Shown here piece by piece: positions 2 to 58,468 of a stretch of DNA of 64,000 nt (positions are counted from its first letter, which is position 1; each line of letters starts with the position of its first letter). The position numbers and the translations under genes are program-made. The notes under the pieces are model-generated. The model had not been told where the DNA came from. It was given only the letters and a program-made list of their open reading frames with translations, and made no database searches. The stretch covers positions 2,552-66,551 of the forward strand of contig JAGHTZ010000023.1 in NCBI GenBank assembly GCA_018065065.1, written 5' to 3'. Source of the DNA: Candidatus Equadaptatus faecalis. GTDB taxonomy: Bacteria > Synergistota > Synergistia > Synergistales > Synergistaceae.

Positions 2-466
2 TTTAAGAGACAGATAGCCGAAGGGGGACCTGTTACCGTAACGGACAAGAACATCATCCGCTACTTCATGACCATACCGGAAGCAGTGTCACTCATACTT
101 CAGGCTTCGCACTACGCCGAAGGCGGGGAAATATTTGTCCTTGACATGGGAAAACCGGTGCGCATCGACGACATGGCGCGTGACCTCATAAAGCTCTCCG
201 GCTACACGCCCGACAAAGACATAAAAATCGTCTACACAGGGCTCCGCCCGGGCGAAAAACTCTTCGAAGAACTTCTCATGAGCGAAGAAGGAATGCGCAA
301 AACGCGCAACAACCTCATCTACGTCGGCAAACCGATACAATTTGACGAAGCAAAACTCGAAGCGCAGATTGCCGAACTTGATGCCGCAAGCGCCAACGAA
401 AGCGAAAGAATAAAACAGGCAGTCGCGGAAGTAGTTGATACGTATAAAATCAGCAATAAGCAGTAA
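2..466 (+). CDS. CapD/PglF/WbpM-family NDP-sugar 4,6-dehydratase, C-terminal part (5-prime end outside the window)
   Basis: The frame is open from base 2. The translation FKRQIAEGGPVTVTDKNIIRYFMTIPEAVSLILQA...GGEIFVLDMGKPVRIDDMARDLIKLSG matches the conserved C-terminal region of CapD-type polysaccharide biosynthesis proteins. Confidence 0.8.
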   Translation, partial: FKRQIAEGGPVTVTDKNIIRYFMTIPEAVSLILQASHYAEGGEIFVLDMGKPVRIDDMARDLIKLSGYTPDKDIKIVYTGLRPGEKLFEELLMSEEGMRKTRNNLIYVGKPIQFDEAKLEAQIAELDAASANESERIKQAVAEVVDTYKISNKQ

Positions 467-505
467 GCTATAAGCTGCAAGCGAAAAGCAAAGTGCAAAG
501 TACAA
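451..505 (+). repeat. Heptanucleotide NNNAAGC tandem repeat, site A
   Basis: AATAAGC AGTAAGC TATAAGC TGCAAGC GAAAAGC AAAGTGC AAAGTAC overlaps the stop codon of the CapD-like gene. The same family occurs at 32598-32792, 42711-42822 and 58146-58198. Confidence 0.7.
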
Positions 506-31444: not shown

Positions 31445-32212
31445 TTTTGTTCTTTCGATTGCCGCGAAGGCGTTGTGGTTGTGAATGCTTTCGTGGCTTG
31501 TTATTTCCACGCGGAACCATTTTACCCTGCCGTCAGACTGCAGCCTGAGCGCGGTTTCGCGTACGAAGTCTTCAACGAAGCGAGGCGTTTCGTAGGCGTG
31601 TTCCGTGACGAATTTTTCGTCCTCGCGTTTGAGCAGGGAGTAAACAGGAGCGGAAGCGCAGTCGTCCGCGATTTCGGCAAGCTCTTCAAGCCAGAGCAGT
31701 CCTTCCATGCGGACAGAGATTTTTGCGTGAGCCCTTTGATTGTGCGCGCCGAATTCAGATATTTCCTTCGAGCAGGGGCACAGCGTCTGAACAGGCGCGA
31801 TAAGTGTCGTTGCTATGTCAAAGCTGCTGCCTTTCAGCGAGGTTTCAACTATCGCATCGTAGCGCACGCGCCCTTTTGCGCCGCTGACAGGCGCCGTTTT
31901 TGTTATGAAATACGGAAACGCGAATACGGCGTGAGCTTCGTCTGCGCTGAGTTTTTCTTTAAGCGCGGCAAGCAGGGAGCGCATGTTGTGCAGCGTTATG
32001 TTTTTTTCCTGCGCGGCAAGCAGCTCGATAAAGCGGCTCATGTGCGTTCCGCGGTAGTCGTGCGGAAGCAGCACGGAGAGCGAAACTTCGGCAACTGTTT
32101 CCTGCGTGCCGTTTTCCCTGTCCATAACGGTAACCGGCCAGGAAATGCCGCTTACCCCGACCTTGTCTATTTCTATGTTTCTTGCATCACGTTCGCTCTG
32201 TACGTCTTTCAT
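31442..32212 (-). CDS. folE2: GTP cyclohydrolase I type 2 (FolE2/MptA family)
   Basis: MKDVQSERDARNIEIDKVGVSGISWPVTV is the typical FolE2 N-terminus. The start ATG overlaps the queD stop (ATGA); the ORF track extends 16 codons further. Confidence 0.85.
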   Translation of the reverse strand: MKDVQSERDARNIEIDKVGVSGISWPVTVMDRENGTQETVAEVSLSVLLPHDYRGTHMSRFIELLAAQEKNITLHNMRSLLAALKEKLSADEAHAVFAFPYFITKTAPVSGAKGRVRYDAIVETSLKGSSFDIATTLIAPVQTLCPCSKEISEFGAHNQRAHAKISVRMEGLLWLEELAEIADDCASAPVYSLLKREDEKFVTEHAYETPRFVEDFVRETALRLQSDGRVKWFRVEITSHESIHNHNAFAAIERTK

Positions 32213-32574
32213 TTCAAATCTTCTCTCCTGCATGCGACGGATGAGGTTTCCGTTTCCCATATTTTTATTTCAAACAGCCGGCAGTTCGGTTTTTCGAGAG
32301 GCTTGTCAAGCGTTTTGAATATCCAGAGCGCTATGTTTTCTGTCGTCGGCTGTTCAAGTATGTCGTTTATATAAGCATGGTCGAGCTTTGAAAGCACGAG
32401 TTCTTTTACCGTGCGTTTCACTTCGGCAAAGTCGGTCACCATGTCTTCGTTGTCCGGCGTGCCCTGAAGCGTTACTGCAAGGCGGTAGGTATGTCCGTGC
32501 AGTTTTTCGCATTTACCGTGATAGTTGACGAGGTTGTGCGCCGCGTCGAATTTAAATTCCTTTGTTAAAAACAT
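32209..32574 (-). CDS. queD: 6-carboxytetrahydropterin synthase / 6-pyruvoyl-tetrahydropterin synthase
   Basis: FKFDAAHNLVNYHGKCEKLHGHTYRL carries the zinc-binding His motif of QueD/PTPS. Confidence 0.85.
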   Translation of the reverse strand: MFLTKEFKFDAAHNLVNYHGKCEKLHGHTYRLAVTLQGTPDNEDMVTDFAEVKRTVKELVLSKLDHAYINDILEQPTTENIALWIFKTLDKPLEKPNCRLFEIKIWETETSSVACRREDLK

Positions 32575-32597: not shown

Positions 32598-32792
32598 CAC
32601 AAGCATTAAGCTGTAAGCTATAATACGAGCAATAAGCTATAAGCGCTAAGCCTTAAGCTATAAGCGTTAAGCAATAAGCTATAAGCTACAAGCATTAAGA
32701 CCATAAGCGCCAAGCTATAAGTATTAAGTTTTTTCTTACTGCGTTCAGCTTACTGCTTACAGCTTATAGCTTTCAGCTAGCAACTTGCAGCC
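32598..32792. repeat. Large NNNAAGC heptamer array (about 18 units) followed by an inverted arm, site B
   Basis: The forward arm (32598-32728) reads AAGCATT AAGCTGT AAGCTAT ... AAGTATT AAG. A T6 spacer follows, then the reverse-complement arm (32735-32792), CTTACTGCGTTCAGCTTACTGCTTACAGCTTATAGCTTTCAGCT... Confidence 0.8.
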
Positions 32793-32893
32793 AATAATTC
32801 ACAGTCCGCCGCTTGTTTTTATTATATTATAAAAATGCTGAATAGATAGTATAATTAAAAAAGAAATTTAAGACTCGTGGCGGAGGGAAGCAG

Positions 32894-33532
32894 ATGATAA
32901 GAACGGTGCTTTTTGATTTTGACATGACGCTCGTTGACAGCAGTTACGCGATAGCGCACTGCACCAATCTGCTCGCGGAGCATTTTGGGCTTCGCAGGCT
33001 TTCGCGAGAGGAAACGCTTGCCATAATCGGTATCCACATAGAAAAAGCGTGGGCAAACGTCTGGGGCGATTTCAAGCAGGAATGGCTGGATTATTACAGG
33101 GCGAATTTCGGCGTTAAAGAGGACGCGCTCATACGGGTTTTTGACAGCACGGTTCCGACACTTGAAAAACTCAGAAGCATGGGCATAAAAACCGGCGTGG
33201 CTTCCAACAGGCATTATGCCCTGCGTCCGATAAAAAACCTCGGGCTTGAAAAATATTTGGACAGTATTGTTGGTATCAGGGAAGCGGCGAATCCAAAGCC
33301 TGCCCCCGACATTATTCTGAAATCGCTTGCGGAACTGCGTACTCTCAAAGAAGAGGCTGTCTATGTCGGAGATACCGATACGGATATGAAAACGGCAAAA
33401 AACGCCGGAGTACGCGCAATAGGCATGACGACCGGAAATTTTACGCGCGGGCAGCTGTTTGAAGCAGGCGCGGATTTTGTGTGCGGCGACCTCGCGGAAA
33501 TTCTTGAAATAATTGAAAAAGACAATAAATAG
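32894..33532 (+). CDS. HAD-superfamily hydrolase (phosphoglycolate phosphatase-like)
   Basis: Motif I is VLFDFDMTLVDS, motif II is GVASN and motif IV is VGDTDTDMKTAKNAG. Confidence 0.75.
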   Translation: MIRTVLFDFDMTLVDSSYAIAHCTNLLAEHFGLRRLSREETLAIIGIHIEKAWANVWGDFKQEWLDYYRANFGVKEDALIRVFDSTVPTLEKLRSMGIKTGVASNRHYALRPIKNLGLEKYLDSIVGIREAANPKPAPDIILKSLAELRTLKEEAVYVGDTDTDMKTAKNAGVRAIGMTTGNFTRGQLFEAGADFVCGDLAEILEIIEKDNK

Positions 33533-42416: not shown

Positions 42417-42454
42417 CGGACAGCGCAAAGTTAAAAAATTCAAAATGCAAAATC

Positions 42455-42490
42455 AAAACGGTTTGGAATTGCTCCAAACCGTTTTAATTT
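42455..42490 (+). terminator. Rho-independent terminator after the NSS transporter gene
   Basis: AAAACGGTTTGGA-ATTGC-TCCAAACCGTTTT is followed by AATTT. Confidence 0.7.
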
Positions 42491-42710
42491 GTAAAAAACC
42501 GCAGAGTTGAGCTAAACTTGCAGTGCGTTCTTCATTTTTCATTAGTCATTGCTTCTCTAATCCGTCATTCTGCGGAAGTCCGAAGGACTTAGCGCCGAAC
42601 CCAGCGTCGTTGGTTCTTCTTTCAAAGCCTTAAAAAGTCACTGGATCCTGCGCTGCTCCTGACGGAGCCCGCAGGATACCCCTCCGGGGCACGCGAGACA
42701 AAGATTTTTT

Positions 42711-42822
42711 GCTTACGGTTTTCAGCTGTCGGCTTAATGCTTACTGCTTATTCTTCACTTTGCACTTTACACTTCATTTAGATTTTGCTTTTGCTTGCAG
42801 CATATAGCTTACAGCATACAGC
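42711..42822 (-). repeat. NNNAAGC heptamer-family repeat, site C (AAGC orientation on the minus strand, immediately 3-prime of alr)
   Basis: The reverse complement reads GCTGTAAGCTATATGCTGCAAGCAAAAGCAAAATC...GTGTAAAGTGCAAAGTGAAGAATAAGCAGTAAGCATTAAGCC. It shares strings with site A (AATAAGCAGTAAGC, AAAGTGCAAAGT). Confidence 0.7.
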
Positions 42823-42826
42823 GTTA

Positions 42827-43912
42827 CTACACGTACTTTCTTTCCACCCGCTTTGATATATTGCACACAATTTCATACCCGATTGTGCCTATTTCATGCG
42901 CCATATCGTCCGCCGTATATCCTTTGCCCAGCAATATAACCTCATCGCCGCGCTGAACGCCCGGAATATCAGAAACGTCAACAGTCAGCTGATCCATGCA
43001 GACGCGTCCGGCAAGAGGAGCTTTTCTGCCGCGGATAATGACGCAGCCCTTGTTTGAAAGCGCGCGGCTGTAACCGTCCGCATAGCCTGTCGGAATTGTC
43101 GCTATCCGCGTTTCTTTCTCTGCCTTGAAAGTTCTTCCGTAGCCGATAGTTTCTCCCTCATGCACGGTCTTAACCATCGAAACTACAGATTTCCATTCAA
43201 GCGCGGGGCGTATTCCCTCAGGCAGAATATTTGCGTAATCCGGCTTCAGCCCGTAAAGAATTATGCCGAGCCTCGCAAGACTGCCGTACGGCTTCTGCCG
43301 CAATGCGCCCGCGGAATTCATACAGTGGACGTAAGGCAGCTTCAAATCAGCGGCCTGTTCGCAAACTGCGCGGAATTTTGCCAGCTGTCCCTCGGTGAAG
43401 CTCTGTTCCGAAGGTGTATCTGCGACGCAAAGATGGGTAAAAAGTCCCGTCAGATTAAAACGCTTCGCGTATTTTCTGATTATTTCGCCGCAAAGCTCAG
43501 GGTTGTCTGCGTCAAGACCTATGCGGTTCATGCCGGTATCAAGCGCGAAATGCGCGGTAATGCCCTTGTCCGCAAGAGCCTCTGCATAATCTTCGTCAAG
43601 CAGCGCCTGTGTGATATTGTAATTTACAAGACGGTCGGCCTCCTCCGGCGGAGTATAGCCGAGAATAAGAAGCTGCCCGGAAATTCCGGCATTGCGCAGA
43701 TTAAGCGCTTCGTTAAGATTTGAAACGGCGAAATTGCGGCAGCCTGCAGCCTGCAAAGCCGAAGCTGTCTGCGCGTCGCCGTGTCCGTACGCGTCAGCCT
43801 TGACGACTGCCATAATTTCATAGCCGTCAGAAAGTTTTTTAATTTCCTTTTTGTAAATTTTGTAATTGCTGACAACAGTATCGAGATTTATCTCAGTCCA
43901 ACAGCGTCTCAC
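42827..43912 (-). CDS. alr: Alanine racemase
   Basis: AVVKADAYGHG (PLP lysine) and the full-length family pattern are present. The start is set at the GTG preceded by GGGGGA. The 574-aa ORF in the track is an artificial upstream extension with no ATG near the homology start. Confidence 0.9.
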   Translation of the reverse strand: MRRCWTEINLDTVVSNYKIYKKEIKKLSDGYEIMAVVKADAYGHGDAQTASALQAAGCRNFAVSNLNEALNLRNAGISGQLLILGYTPPEEADRLVNYNITQALLDEDYAEALADKGITAHFALDTGMNRIGLDADNPELCGEIIRKYAKRFNLTGLFTHLCVADTPSEQSFTEGQLAKFRAVCEQAADLKLPYVHCMNSAGALRQKPYGSLARLGIILYGLKPDYANILPEGIRPALEWKSVVSMVKTVHEGETIGYGRTFKAEKETRIATIPTGYADGYSRALSNKGCVIIRGRKAPLAGRVCMDQLTVDVSDIPGVQRGDEVILLGKGYTADDMAHEIGTIGYEIVCNISKRVERKYV

Positions 43913-44107
43913 AGCGTTTCCCCCTGTCCGCAGGTTTTGCCGAAAGAAATTATATACCCAAAACAACACAAATGGGATAGAGAGCAAAACTGCGTGAATT
44001 ATGCAGGTTAGTTTTATTATTGGCTCCTGCTGTTTTTTTGTCAAATTGCGCCGTTTAATGGTATACTTAACGGCAGAGCCAGCACGCGTACGGGTGCAGT
44101 TTTTGTT

Positions 44108-44950
44108 GTGCAGACGCGTCGCCGCGGAAGTCTGAGAGGGGTGAACGTTTTGGGCAGAATCGCGCTTATAGCCGGTGAGGGTATGCTTCCTGTTTCCATC
44201 GCAAAACAGCTTTCGGAACAGGGTGATGCCCCTGTGCTTTACAATCTGAGGCATGATTTTGAAGAGCTCAGGGCGTTTGTCTGTGAGGTCGTTGACATTC
44301 AGAAGCCTAATCTCGGCGCCGCGATAAAGAGCATGAAAAAACTGGGCGTTGACAGGATAATTATGGCGGGGCGCGTGCCGAAGTCGCTTATGTTCAAACC
44401 AGCCCTGCTTGATTTCACTTCGCAGAAATTTCTTGCCGGTCTTCTGTTCCGCGATGACCATTCCCTGCTCGGCGCTATTGTCGATTTCTTTGAGAAGCAG
44501 GGTTTCAAGGTAATAAGCTACAAGGACATTGTTCCGCAGCTGGTTGCGCATGAGGGTTTTATTGCAGGGCGCGAGCCTTCGGAGAGCGAACTTGAGGACG
44601 TCAAATACGGCGTTGAAATATGCAGCAGCCTTGTTCCTCTTTCATTCGGGCAGTCTGTTGTTGTGAACAAAGGGGCGGTTATTGCCGTTGAGGCTATAGA
44701 GGGTACGGATAAAATGATTCTCCGCGCGGGAGAGCTGACAAAGGGCGGCGTTGTCGCAAAGCTGATGCGCCTTGACCAGGACGAGAGATACGATATTCCT
44801 ACGGTTGGTCCCCAAACGCTTGAAAACATGGCGGGCGCTGGTCTCACCTGTCTTGCAGTTCACGCGGGGCATACGATGATTATGGATTTTGACAAGTTTG
44901 AGGAAATTGCCAAACGCGAAAAGATTTCCGTTATCGGGGTTGTAGGATGA
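44108..44950 (+). CDS. lpxI: UDP-2,3-diacylglucosamine diphosphatase LpxI (DUF1009 family)
   Basis: RIALIAGEGMLP and GQSVVVNKGAVIAVEAIEGTDKMILRAG are present. The true start may be a GTG/TTG near 44138-44150. Confidence 0.8.
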   Translation: MQTRRRGSLRGVNVLGRIALIAGEGMLPVSIAKQLSEQGDAPVLYNLRHDFEELRAFVCEVVDIQKPNLGAAIKSMKKLGVDRIIMAGRVPKSLMFKPALLDFTSQKFLAGLLFRDDHSLLGAIVDFFEKQGFKVISYKDIVPQLVAHEGFIAGREPSESELEDVKYGVEICSSLVPLSFGQSVVVNKGAVIAVEAIEGTDKMILRAGELTKGGVVAKLMRLDQDERYDIPTVGPQTLENMAGAGLTCLAVHAGHTMIMDFDKFEEIAKREKISVIGVVG

Positions 44951-57742: not shown

Positions 57743-58090
57743 GTGATGGATTTGTCAATTTCAGGCTGCTGCGGAACAGACTGCGAGGCGTGCGAAGCAA
57801 GAAGAGCGACGCTTCAGAAAGACGCCGCCGCTCTGGCAAAGCTTGCCGTTGCGGAAGAAAACGCCGGAGGAGGTTCCTTTGTCCTGCCGTCGAAGCTCAA
57901 ATGCACAGGCTGCCTTGAGCCCGGCGTAAAAAGCATACGCTGCCAGCAGTGCAGAATCCGCATGTGTGCACAGGAAAACCGCATACCGCACTGCGGCTTC
58001 TGCGAAAACTTTCCCTGCGAACTCACAGGCGACGCGTGGGAAGCAATACCTGAATACAAACACAACCTCGAACAGCTAAAAAGCAGATAA
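57743..58090 (+). CDS. DUF3795-family Cys-rich protein
   Basis: The pattern CCGTDCEACE...CTGC...CQQCRIRMCA...CGFCENFPC is present. Confidence 0.65.
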   Translation: MMDLSISGCCGTDCEACEARRATLQKDAAALAKLAVAEENAGGGSFVLPSKLKCTGCLEPGVKSIRCQQCRIRMCAQENRIPHCGFCENFPCELTGDAWEAIPEYKHNLEQLKSR

Positions 58091-58145
58091 AAATACAGCA
58101 GACAGCAATGGCGCTGACGCGCCGCAGACAGCAGACGGCAGACAT

Positions 58146-58198
58146 ATGCTATAAGCTGCAAGCTATAAGCTATAAGCTAAGTGCTAAATGCTAAGTGC
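58146..58198 (+). repeat. NNNAAGC heptamer-family repeat, site D
   Basis: The sequence is ATGCTATAAGCTGCAAGCTATAAGCTATAAGCTAAGTGCTAAATGCTAAGTGC. Confidence 0.7.
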
Positions 58199-58468
58199 GC
58201 TCTTAAAGGTTCTAAATGCCGACAGCCAGATGACCGTAGGGAATATCGACCGTAGGGAGAATACAGCCAACAGCCGTCAGCGCGAGCGAAGCTAGCAATA
58301 CAGCGGCGCGAAGCGCCAGCGGGCTTTACGTTTTTAACTTTAATGAAGGCTTGTGAAGCAAGCCCGCCATAATTGGTTTTTATGGTAACTGATTTTTTTG
58401 GTAATTGTACTTTATAGTCATTGGTTCTTACGGTAATTGGTTTTTTACAACGAAAGGAAGCGGTAAAC

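Follow-up and report, generated by a model that had tools for sequence, protein, structure and literature searches.

A dispersed family of intergenic NNNAAGC heptamer arrays, partly arranged as inverted pairs, in Candidatus Equadaptatus faecalis

Repeat sites of the analysed window

The stretch of 64,000 nucleotides analysed here, referred to as the window, lies on one (C46) of the 100 contigs of the source genome (G000), an assembly of 1.6 Mb with 48% G+C. Four intergenic sites with tandem 7-bp units ending in AAGC had been reported in a first-pass annotation made from the letters alone; all four are present, and the genes that it had named next to them (CapD-like, queD, HAD, alr and DUF3795) were recovered under the same names. 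The features of these sites are listed below, with positions counted from the first letter of the window.

Up to 466: end of the CapD-like gene (Polysacc_synt_2)
451-505, plus strand: AAGC arm overlapping the end of the CapD-like gene, with other unit types continuing the period-7 register as far as 531
32209-32574, minus strand: queD, 6-pyruvoyl-tetrahydropterin synthase (PTPS) gene (PF01242, E 7e-38)
32598-32729, plus strand: forward arm of the main array, about 18 NNNAAGC units, consensus W-D-T-A-A-G-C
32729-32734: T6 spacer, the loop between both arms, also present in the sister species
32735-32792, minus strand: inverted arm of the main array, about 8 units (NNNAAGC on the minus strand), partly degenerate, ending at about 32791
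32894-33532, plus strand: HAD hydrolase gene, in the opposite orientation to that of species G001 and G002
42711-42822, minus strand: degenerate arm beginning about 4 nt past the alr stop
42827-44551, minus strand: alr
57743-58090, plus strand: DUF3795 gene
58146-58177, plus strand: AAGC arm of 4-5 units, starting 56 bp past the DUF3795 stop
58176-58215, plus strand: TAAGTGC-type heptads and a CTTAAAGGTTCTAAA module, both of which also make up the arms of one PF05635 cassette of the sister species
58370-58442: array with a 16-bp period (TAATTGGTTCTTATGG), found by TRF just upstream of the next gene

As a whole, the pattern AAGCN3AAGCN3AAGC was seen 17 times in the window, vs. 0.04 expected from 100 dinucleotide shuffles. 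The largest array is found within the divergent promoter gap between queD and HAD, 23 bp from the queD start codon. Its first AAGC is at 32601 and, when the window is read directly, some 18 forward units extend to 32729 with a single 9-bp interruption (32619-32633), followed by the six T and about eight inverted units, which is the composition that had first been proposed. TRF, in agreement with it, gives period 7 for both halves (32607-32721, 16.6 copies; 32735-32778, 6.3 copies), together with a 21-bp super-period (80% matches). The inverted arm folds against the forward arm, and the resulting hairpin, with a folding z of -2.1 to -2.4, is real but loose. The long imperfect hairpin predicted for this site is retained as far as folding is concerned, whereas the variable positions of paired arms are not complementary beyond chance. 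A promoter/terminator scan of the main site located one promoter-like site (32798-32825), which is not in the array, and detected nothing resembling a terminator at the array; the G+C-rich stem and subsequent U tract of an intrinsic terminator were not found there. Since an independent assembly, that of the sister species G003, has the same array at the orthologous locus, the array is not an assembly artefact.

At the three other sites, the AAGC orientation is that of the gene that has just ended (CapD-like, alr and DUF3795; three out of three), as had been noticed from the start. The overlap with the CapD-like gene is such that its TAA stop codon (464-466) is also the TAA of one repeat unit. 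GCAGACA-type heptads occupy positions 58095-58145, just before the AAGC arm at 58146, and the 16-bp-period array at 58370-58442 is of the same kind as the inverted arms flanking a PF05635 gene elsewhere in the genome (G000:C89:1791-2105). Concerning the alr site, a 400-bp spacer (window 42417-42710) separates alr from the SNF symporter gene; it is a mosaic of dispersed short hairpin modules recurring elsewhere in the genome. The alr ORF itself (42827-44551) codes for 574 aa, with alanine racemase domains from residue 221; either the protein has a 220-aa N-terminal extension or its true start lies further in.

Census of the repeat family in the genome

The genome-wide census of the motif proposed in the first-pass annotation was run in several ways. 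A sensitive scan gave 122 arms, comprising 617 units, at 91 loci. When the 256 tetramers were compared at periods of 5 to 12, AAGC/GCTT at period 7 stood out clearly as the most phased, forming 80 arrays of four or more units, and a four-unit pattern matched the genome 190 times vs. twice for the reversed control. The excess was equally apparent without any given motif: period 7 accounted for 299 TRF arrays and 9.2 kb, several-fold the figure for any other period, and the self-identity of the intergenic DNA peaks at lags of 7, 14 and 21. Only two of the 122 arms were located within confident genes, for a genome whose coding share is 79-88% according to our own rough gene caller, so that the description of a dispersed and strictly intergenic family was borne out.

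The anatomy of the units was established on 77 AAGC-type regions drawn from period-7 regions that had been found without any motif reference. In the core AAGC columns, the majority base is present in 82-84% of the units, vs. 56-65% in the other three columns. The unit consensus is [T/A][A/G/T]T-AAGC; 42 different triplets are used, C being almost never found at the second position. By comparison, when five TAAGC units were sought in 185,579 species genomes, the matches listed were mostly runs of one identical unit in other phyla. Since these listed matches are for the most part homogeneous microsatellites of unrelated phyla, the scan says little about the relatives of the family.

For 39 of the 91 loci, a contig end is found within 600 bp, which indicates that the heptamer repeats break the assembly; in practice, such elements are an obstacle to short-read assemblies.

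No Rfam 15 family matched the window at gathering scores and nothing of note was found in six array-rich loci, nor was any tRNA or tmRNA detected in the array-rich loci.

Pairing, folding and position of the arms

Arms occur in one orientation only at 68 of the 91 loci. Where both orientations are present, the order is forward-then-inverted at 22 loci and the reverse at a single one, which consists of overlapping AAGCTT palindromes. Long stems are predicted for the 22 paired loci: compared with dinucleotide shuffles, their mean folding z is -3.4, with z < -2 in 17 of them. These stems are loose. The complementarity of the variable triplets between paired arms is 0.40 vs. a null value of 0.48 and hence not above chance, from which it follows that the stems are made of 5-bp TAAGC/GCTTA helices split by small (2x2) internal loops and that the arms are not simple inverted duplicates. 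The loops enclosed by the AAGC pairs measure 15-130 bp and hold no gene.

The strand bias relative to gene ends, a check suggested at the outset, was assessed in the gaps between co-directional genes, where 40 sense arms were counted vs. 18 antisense arms. Thirty-one of the 40 sense arms are closer to the upstream stop than to the downstream start and 14 begin at most 16 bp from the stop, some of them including the stop codon. The bias is not confined to gene ends, however. Among single-orientation loci, 37 of 43 are closer to their 5'-side neighbour, with a median distance of 43 bp vs. 230 bp (p = 1.6e-6, a value to be read with the knowledge that gene calls are crude and that paralogous copies are not independent and inflate the statistics). 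This polarity holds for neighbours on the same strand (27/30) as well as for those on the opposite strand (10/13), whose gene starts the arms hug, and a non-coding structured element described below likewise has arms against its end. The general rule is that an arm directly abuts whatever stands on its 5' side. Thus, of the 3'-UTR association initially suggested for the family, the gene-end bias was confirmed, but not its specificity for 3'-UTRs, as shown by the opposite-strand gene starts; as for the main array, its place in a divergent promoter gap is at odds with a 3'-UTR reading.

Distribution among related species and copied modules

The four-unit pattern was also searched in the four other species of the genus (G001 to G004), with the following numbers of matches vs. 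the reversed control.

G000: 190 vs. 2
G003: 66 vs. 0
G004: 2 vs. 0
G001: 1 vs. 0
G002: 0 vs. 0

The family is therefore expanded only in the G000 species and in its 93%-identical sister G003. No arrays comparable to those of G000 were found with a five-unit pattern in 36 other genomes of the order; the five-unit matches of G023 and G033 are single simple arrays only, e.g. of AAGCCCC. A repair defect does not explain this lineage-specific burst, since each of the five species has intact MutS, MutS2 and MutL.

G003 is 93% identical to G000 over the segment alr-queD-array-HAD, in which the array is orthologous, both of its ends and the T6 being common to the two species. Between them, whole units have been gained, lost or replaced in either arm of the queD-HAD array, in line with the variation in unit number between relatives anticipated for slippage. 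In G004, queD and HAD have the same divergent order, but with an unrelated 118-bp spacer that lacks the array and in which the HAD promoter part is kept, while in G001 and G002 HAD is co-directional with queD, 45 bp apart. The array is located at the HAD inversion junction in G000 and G003, G004 being inverted without an array. The array of the alr site and the 400-bp mosaic spacer are both kept in G003 and G004, the array with a one-unit difference, whereas the entire spacer is absent from G002, which has only a terminator hairpin at this position. At the 58146 site, the sister species holds another insert between the same flanks.

Within G000, identical multi-unit strings, accompanied by the same non-repeat loops and flanks, are found on several contigs, recurring at five to six loci. 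At least three arm-loop-arm families are recognisable, each with four to six near-identical copies. The recurrent modules include a loop module, TTAGAACCTTTAA (24 copies), TAAGTGC heptads (18 copies) and a small hairpin, CCCAAAAGCAATTTTGGG (18 copies). The arrays are thus parts of larger copied mosaic elements. Two paralogous pairs of tiny genes (~70 and 79 aa; G000:C93:3238-4024 and G000:C55:4309-5032) have AAGC arrays on either side of each gene.

PF05635 cassettes

Genes of the PF05635 family, which is Avd-like (PMC10053308) and bears the name '23S rRNA intervening-sequence protein', number six in G000, 10 in G001, six in G002, three in G003 and none in G004, and only one of 14 control genomes had any. 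All six of the small PF05635 genes of G000 are enclosed by inverted flanks that outscore every one of 200 shuffles. Clear period-7 arms, of differing unit families, are present around four of the six, and arms with a 16-bp period around one. In the C27 cassette, with its gene at G000:C27:2570-2881, the arms consist of TATA-N-GC and TGCA-N-GC units, TATAAGC and AAAAAGC among them, and have the forward-then-inverted order of the AAGC pairs. The same arrangement was observed for the PF05635 cassettes of the other species.

A possible direct connection is suggested by G003, in which one cassette (contig C8) is located directly past a tRNA gene and has arms made of TAAGTGC heptads and a CCTTTAAAGG module. 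These arms match window positions 58176-58211 and three other G000 loci over 32-46 bp with 84-97% identity, all being short matches. At the orthologous site of G000, past the same tRNA (G000:C38:30097-30205), stands a 109-bp gene-less hairpin of a different heptamer family; the G003 cassette occupying its place measures ~750 bp (G003:C8:11400-12300, locus L212). Together with the differing inserts at window position 58146, this site shows that modules are exchanged at orthologous positions.

The proposed link between the AAGC arrays and the cassettes consists of shared modules and related units, none of the six PF05635 genes of G000 having pure AAGC arms. Conversely, no PF05635 ORF of the kind that characterises intervening-sequence cassettes was found in the loop of an AAGC pair. 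As the AAGC loops are gene-less and the six gene-bearing cassettes are elsewhere in the genome, the AAGC hairpins are at most gene-less relatives of the cassettes. The number of PF05635 genes does not track the AAGC expansion either: G001 has 10 genes and one match, G002 six genes and no match, and G004 possesses a few arrays and yet no PF05635 gene. The predominance of loci with a single arm orientation (68 of 91) also speaks against the link.

Comparison with known intergenic repeats

To our knowledge, intergenic heptamer repeats have been described since 1990 and no mechanism has been given for them. The STRR heptanucleotides of heterocystous cyanobacteria (Calothrix PCC 7601) are reportedly dispersed intergenic tandem heptamers, with several unit families per genome. 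STRR units are largely homogeneous within an array. In contrast to the AAGC family, the accessible part of the STRR literature describes neither a core-plus-variable pattern nor a pairing rule.

The closest parallel is offered by Xanthomonas, with 186 arrays of the GGGAATC type, and by similar GGGGA(T/C)T arrays in Nostoc PCC 7120 (Rehm et al. 2015, PMC4692102). The units are heterogeneous, with positions 1-4 and 6 conserved, and in 70 cases two arrays are convergent and close. The arrays are 89-93% intergenic, occupy tens to hundreds of loci with 2-26 units each, and differ in length and sequence between close species at conserved positions. Their mean distance is 28 nt to the 5'-side ORF vs. 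160 nt downstream, whatever the orientation of the ORF and with overlaps of the stop codon included; no link to mobile elements was reported (PMC4692102).

The AAGC family has all of these features, namely a core with free positions, an intergenic location, convergent pairs, closeness to the 5' side and interspecies variation, and the four traits that characterise bacterial heptameric repeats (excess, intergenic location, convergent pairs with 5' closeness, and variation between relatives) were all found. It differs from the Xanthomonas and Nostoc arrays in that its unit is A/T-rich instead of G-rich, its host is a Synergistaceae gut bacterium and its arrays are embedded in copied mosaic modules. 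A literature search found no earlier report of such heptamers in this phylum; the AAGC arrays are a non-G-rich addition, in a new phylum, to the known heptameric intergenic repeats. G-quadruplexes are impossible for the AAGC unit, which is without G runs. Since an A/T-rich family obeys the rules of the Xanthomonas and Nostoc arrays, these rules cannot depend on G-quadruplexes and point instead to a common process, for which the PF05635 cassette and the gene-less hairpin at the same site of two sister species are a concrete candidate.

Other heptamers are more distant. The TAACTGA repeats of marine Beggiatoaceae, cyanobacteria and Bacteroidetes are likewise abundant, intergenic, patchy, lineage-specific and strand-biased but, unlike the AAGC arrays, they have exact units, two to six per array, placed immediately ahead of start codons in sense orientation, and next to no inverted pairs, a single one being reported (MacGregor 2015, PMC4679880). 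Heptamers are the commonest long simple repeat in many bacteria, with slippage as the standard explanation (Mrazek 2007, as related in PMC4679880), and the genome paper of Geobacter metallireducens lists heptanucleotide elements.

Two other kinds of element share the hairpin layout. REP, BIME and REPIN elements are also intergenic, many-copied, hairpin-forming inverted doublets that build mosaics with short modules (PMC3116915), whereas the AAGC element repeats a 7-bp unit in tandem instead of being one imperfect palindrome, and no RAYT was found. Its initial separation from REP/BIME-type palindromes stands, as does that from CRISPR. The intervening sequences of 23S rRNA that contain an S23p/PF05635 ORF (Coxiella burnetii, Leptospira) similarly consist of a small gene between inverted arms forming a long stem; in Coxiella, the stem is cleaved by RNase III and contains tandem GACAGAT heptamers in numbers that differ from strain to strain (PMC4990558). 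The G000 elements differ from them by their location between protein genes or past a tRNA, and not in 23S rRNA as assembled, and the AAGC hairpins by the lack of a gene.

Origin and possible role of the arrays

The main rival to the explanation favoured below is plain simple-sequence expansion, in which heptanucleotide microsatellites would arise and grow in situ by polymerase slippage wherever DNA is unconstrained, with no element, mobility or function. The prevalence of heptamers among bacterial simple repeats (Mrazek 2007, as related in PMC4679880) speaks for it, as do the interspecies differences in whole units, the period-7 register that continues across changing unit types and local higher-order duplications, e.g. 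in a 25-unit array on contig C42. Against it stand the identical strings with their non-repeat loops and flanks at five to six loci, a conserved core next to three freely varying positions, a pair order of 22 to 1 combined with a strong 5'-side polarity, and whole inserts swapped at orthologous sites. Moreover, the heterogeneous arrays of G000 contrast with the TAAGC heptamers found elsewhere, mostly homogeneous among the matches listed, and the mismatch-repair genes are intact in the five species. Expansion in place is thus judged improbable, albeit deserving serious consideration. An RNA-level 3'-UTR element, in which (NNUAAGC)n past the stop codon would serve as a platform for a binder or as a three-frame stop block and control the stability or termination of mRNA 3' ends, appears unlikely. 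The sense bias (40 to 18) and the nearness to stops would be expected of it, the conserved core with free spacers is the trace that a sequence-specific binder would leave, and three units place TAA in every frame; yet the polarity extends to opposite-strand gene starts and to a non-coding element, the largest array is in a divergent promoter gap, three congeneric species with the same genes are almost devoid of the family, no terminator-like site was found at the array and no binder is known.

A DNA-level role is still harder to reconcile with the data. The arrays would here be either slippage-prone spacers that tune the queD and HAD promoters by phase variation, as had been considered at the outset, or iterated protein-binding sites. 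The heterogeneous units, with 42 different triplets, suppress slippage, the array is still alignable across flanks that have diverged by about 7%, most arrays are past stop codons rather than in promoters, and their neighbours are ordinary metabolic genes; neither homogeneous units in an ORF or promoter spacer nor, in the comparison of the sister species, rapid length change, the hallmarks of phase-variable contingency repeats, were observed. The array does not include the likely HAD promoter (32798-32825), which is conserved in a species lacking the array. Points in favour of a DNA-level role are the position of the main array between divergent genes, where the queD promoter must be in or beyond it, the super-period of 21 bp, equal to two helical turns, and the effect of heptamers on promoter use in Nostoc recO and recF reporters (bioRxiv 10.1101/2022.06.06.494920); such a switch or binding array is nonetheless considered very unlikely. 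Least probable of all, and already disfavoured, is a REP/REPIN-type element moved by a RAYT or by an IS200/IS605-type single-strand transposase: its hairpin-forming inverted doublets, intergenic location and mosaics with short modules are reminiscent of BIMEs and REPINs (PMC3116915), but the unit is a 7-bp tandem repeat instead of an imperfect palindrome of 20-40 nt. No RAYT/Y1 transposase (PF01797) matched in the five species, 6 of 14 control genomes scoring in the same search, and no TnpB was found in G000. A reverse transcriptase, present in G000 and G001 and not in G003, does not track the arrays.

The explanation that we favour, and which we place on the likely side by a small measure, is that of copied hairpin elements of the Xanthomonas/STRR kind, whose heptamer arms are resized by slippage and which are probably gene-less relatives of the PF05635 cassettes. 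The NNNAAGC arrays would represent the most expanded unit family among the heptamer-armed intergenic hairpin elements, and the gene-less AAGC hairpins would be miniature relatives of the cassettes. Judging from the repeated strings and swapped inserts, they may have spread by module copying or recombination, the arrays lengthening and shortening through replication slippage in a 7-bp register. In a transcript, paired arms are predicted to form a long, loose stem-loop just beyond the gene end. By analogy with the intervening sequences, RNase III could cleave this stem-loop; alternatively, it could protect the 3' end or insulate it. An RNase III gene is encoded in G000, but 5-bp helices with 2x2 loops are poor RNase III substrates, which counts against this part of the explanation. 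For the host, the elements would mainly be selfish or neutral passengers and not switches. No transposition machinery and no target-site duplication were found for them.

A more far-reaching proposal, possible but offered tentatively, is that heptamer arrays in bacteria, rather than being passive microsatellites, are in general the arms of a widespread mobile stem-loop cassette, of which the Avd-like PF05635 protein would recognise or help to build the 7-nt-periodic arms, with the gene-less units and the Xanthomonas and cyanobacterial heptamers as miniature, non-autonomous copies. Insertion of such a cassette just outside structured or coding ends would produce the universal 5'-side polarity without a G-quadruplex.

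A structured element next to the arrays

A multi-copy structured non-coding element, which is not part of the heptamer finding, lies directly beside many arrays, e.g. at G000:C48:7846-8614 (L017:846-1615). It was analysed on copies L165-L208, with alignments A2 and A3 and the model R1. Each genome has 8-22 copies or more. The modelled core of 165 nt comprises 49 predicted pairs, 36 of them with compensatory changes among 30 copies of the five species; in the alignment, 90% of the cells are paired, vs. 31-43% when the partners are slid. The element folds better on the strand that ends with ...GUAAUCCGGAGU, right before a sense-strand heptamer array. The covariance model detected it in each of the five species of the genus, while 28 other genera of the family gave no match; nor did Rfam or a plasmid collection. 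Its copies form two subfamilies plus mosaics, and many contigs end inside them. Divergent from a full copy of the element, and adjoining rpoB, is a single-copy gene (G000:C48:8784-10176) for an ISL3-like transposase with an N-terminal zinc-ribbon motif.
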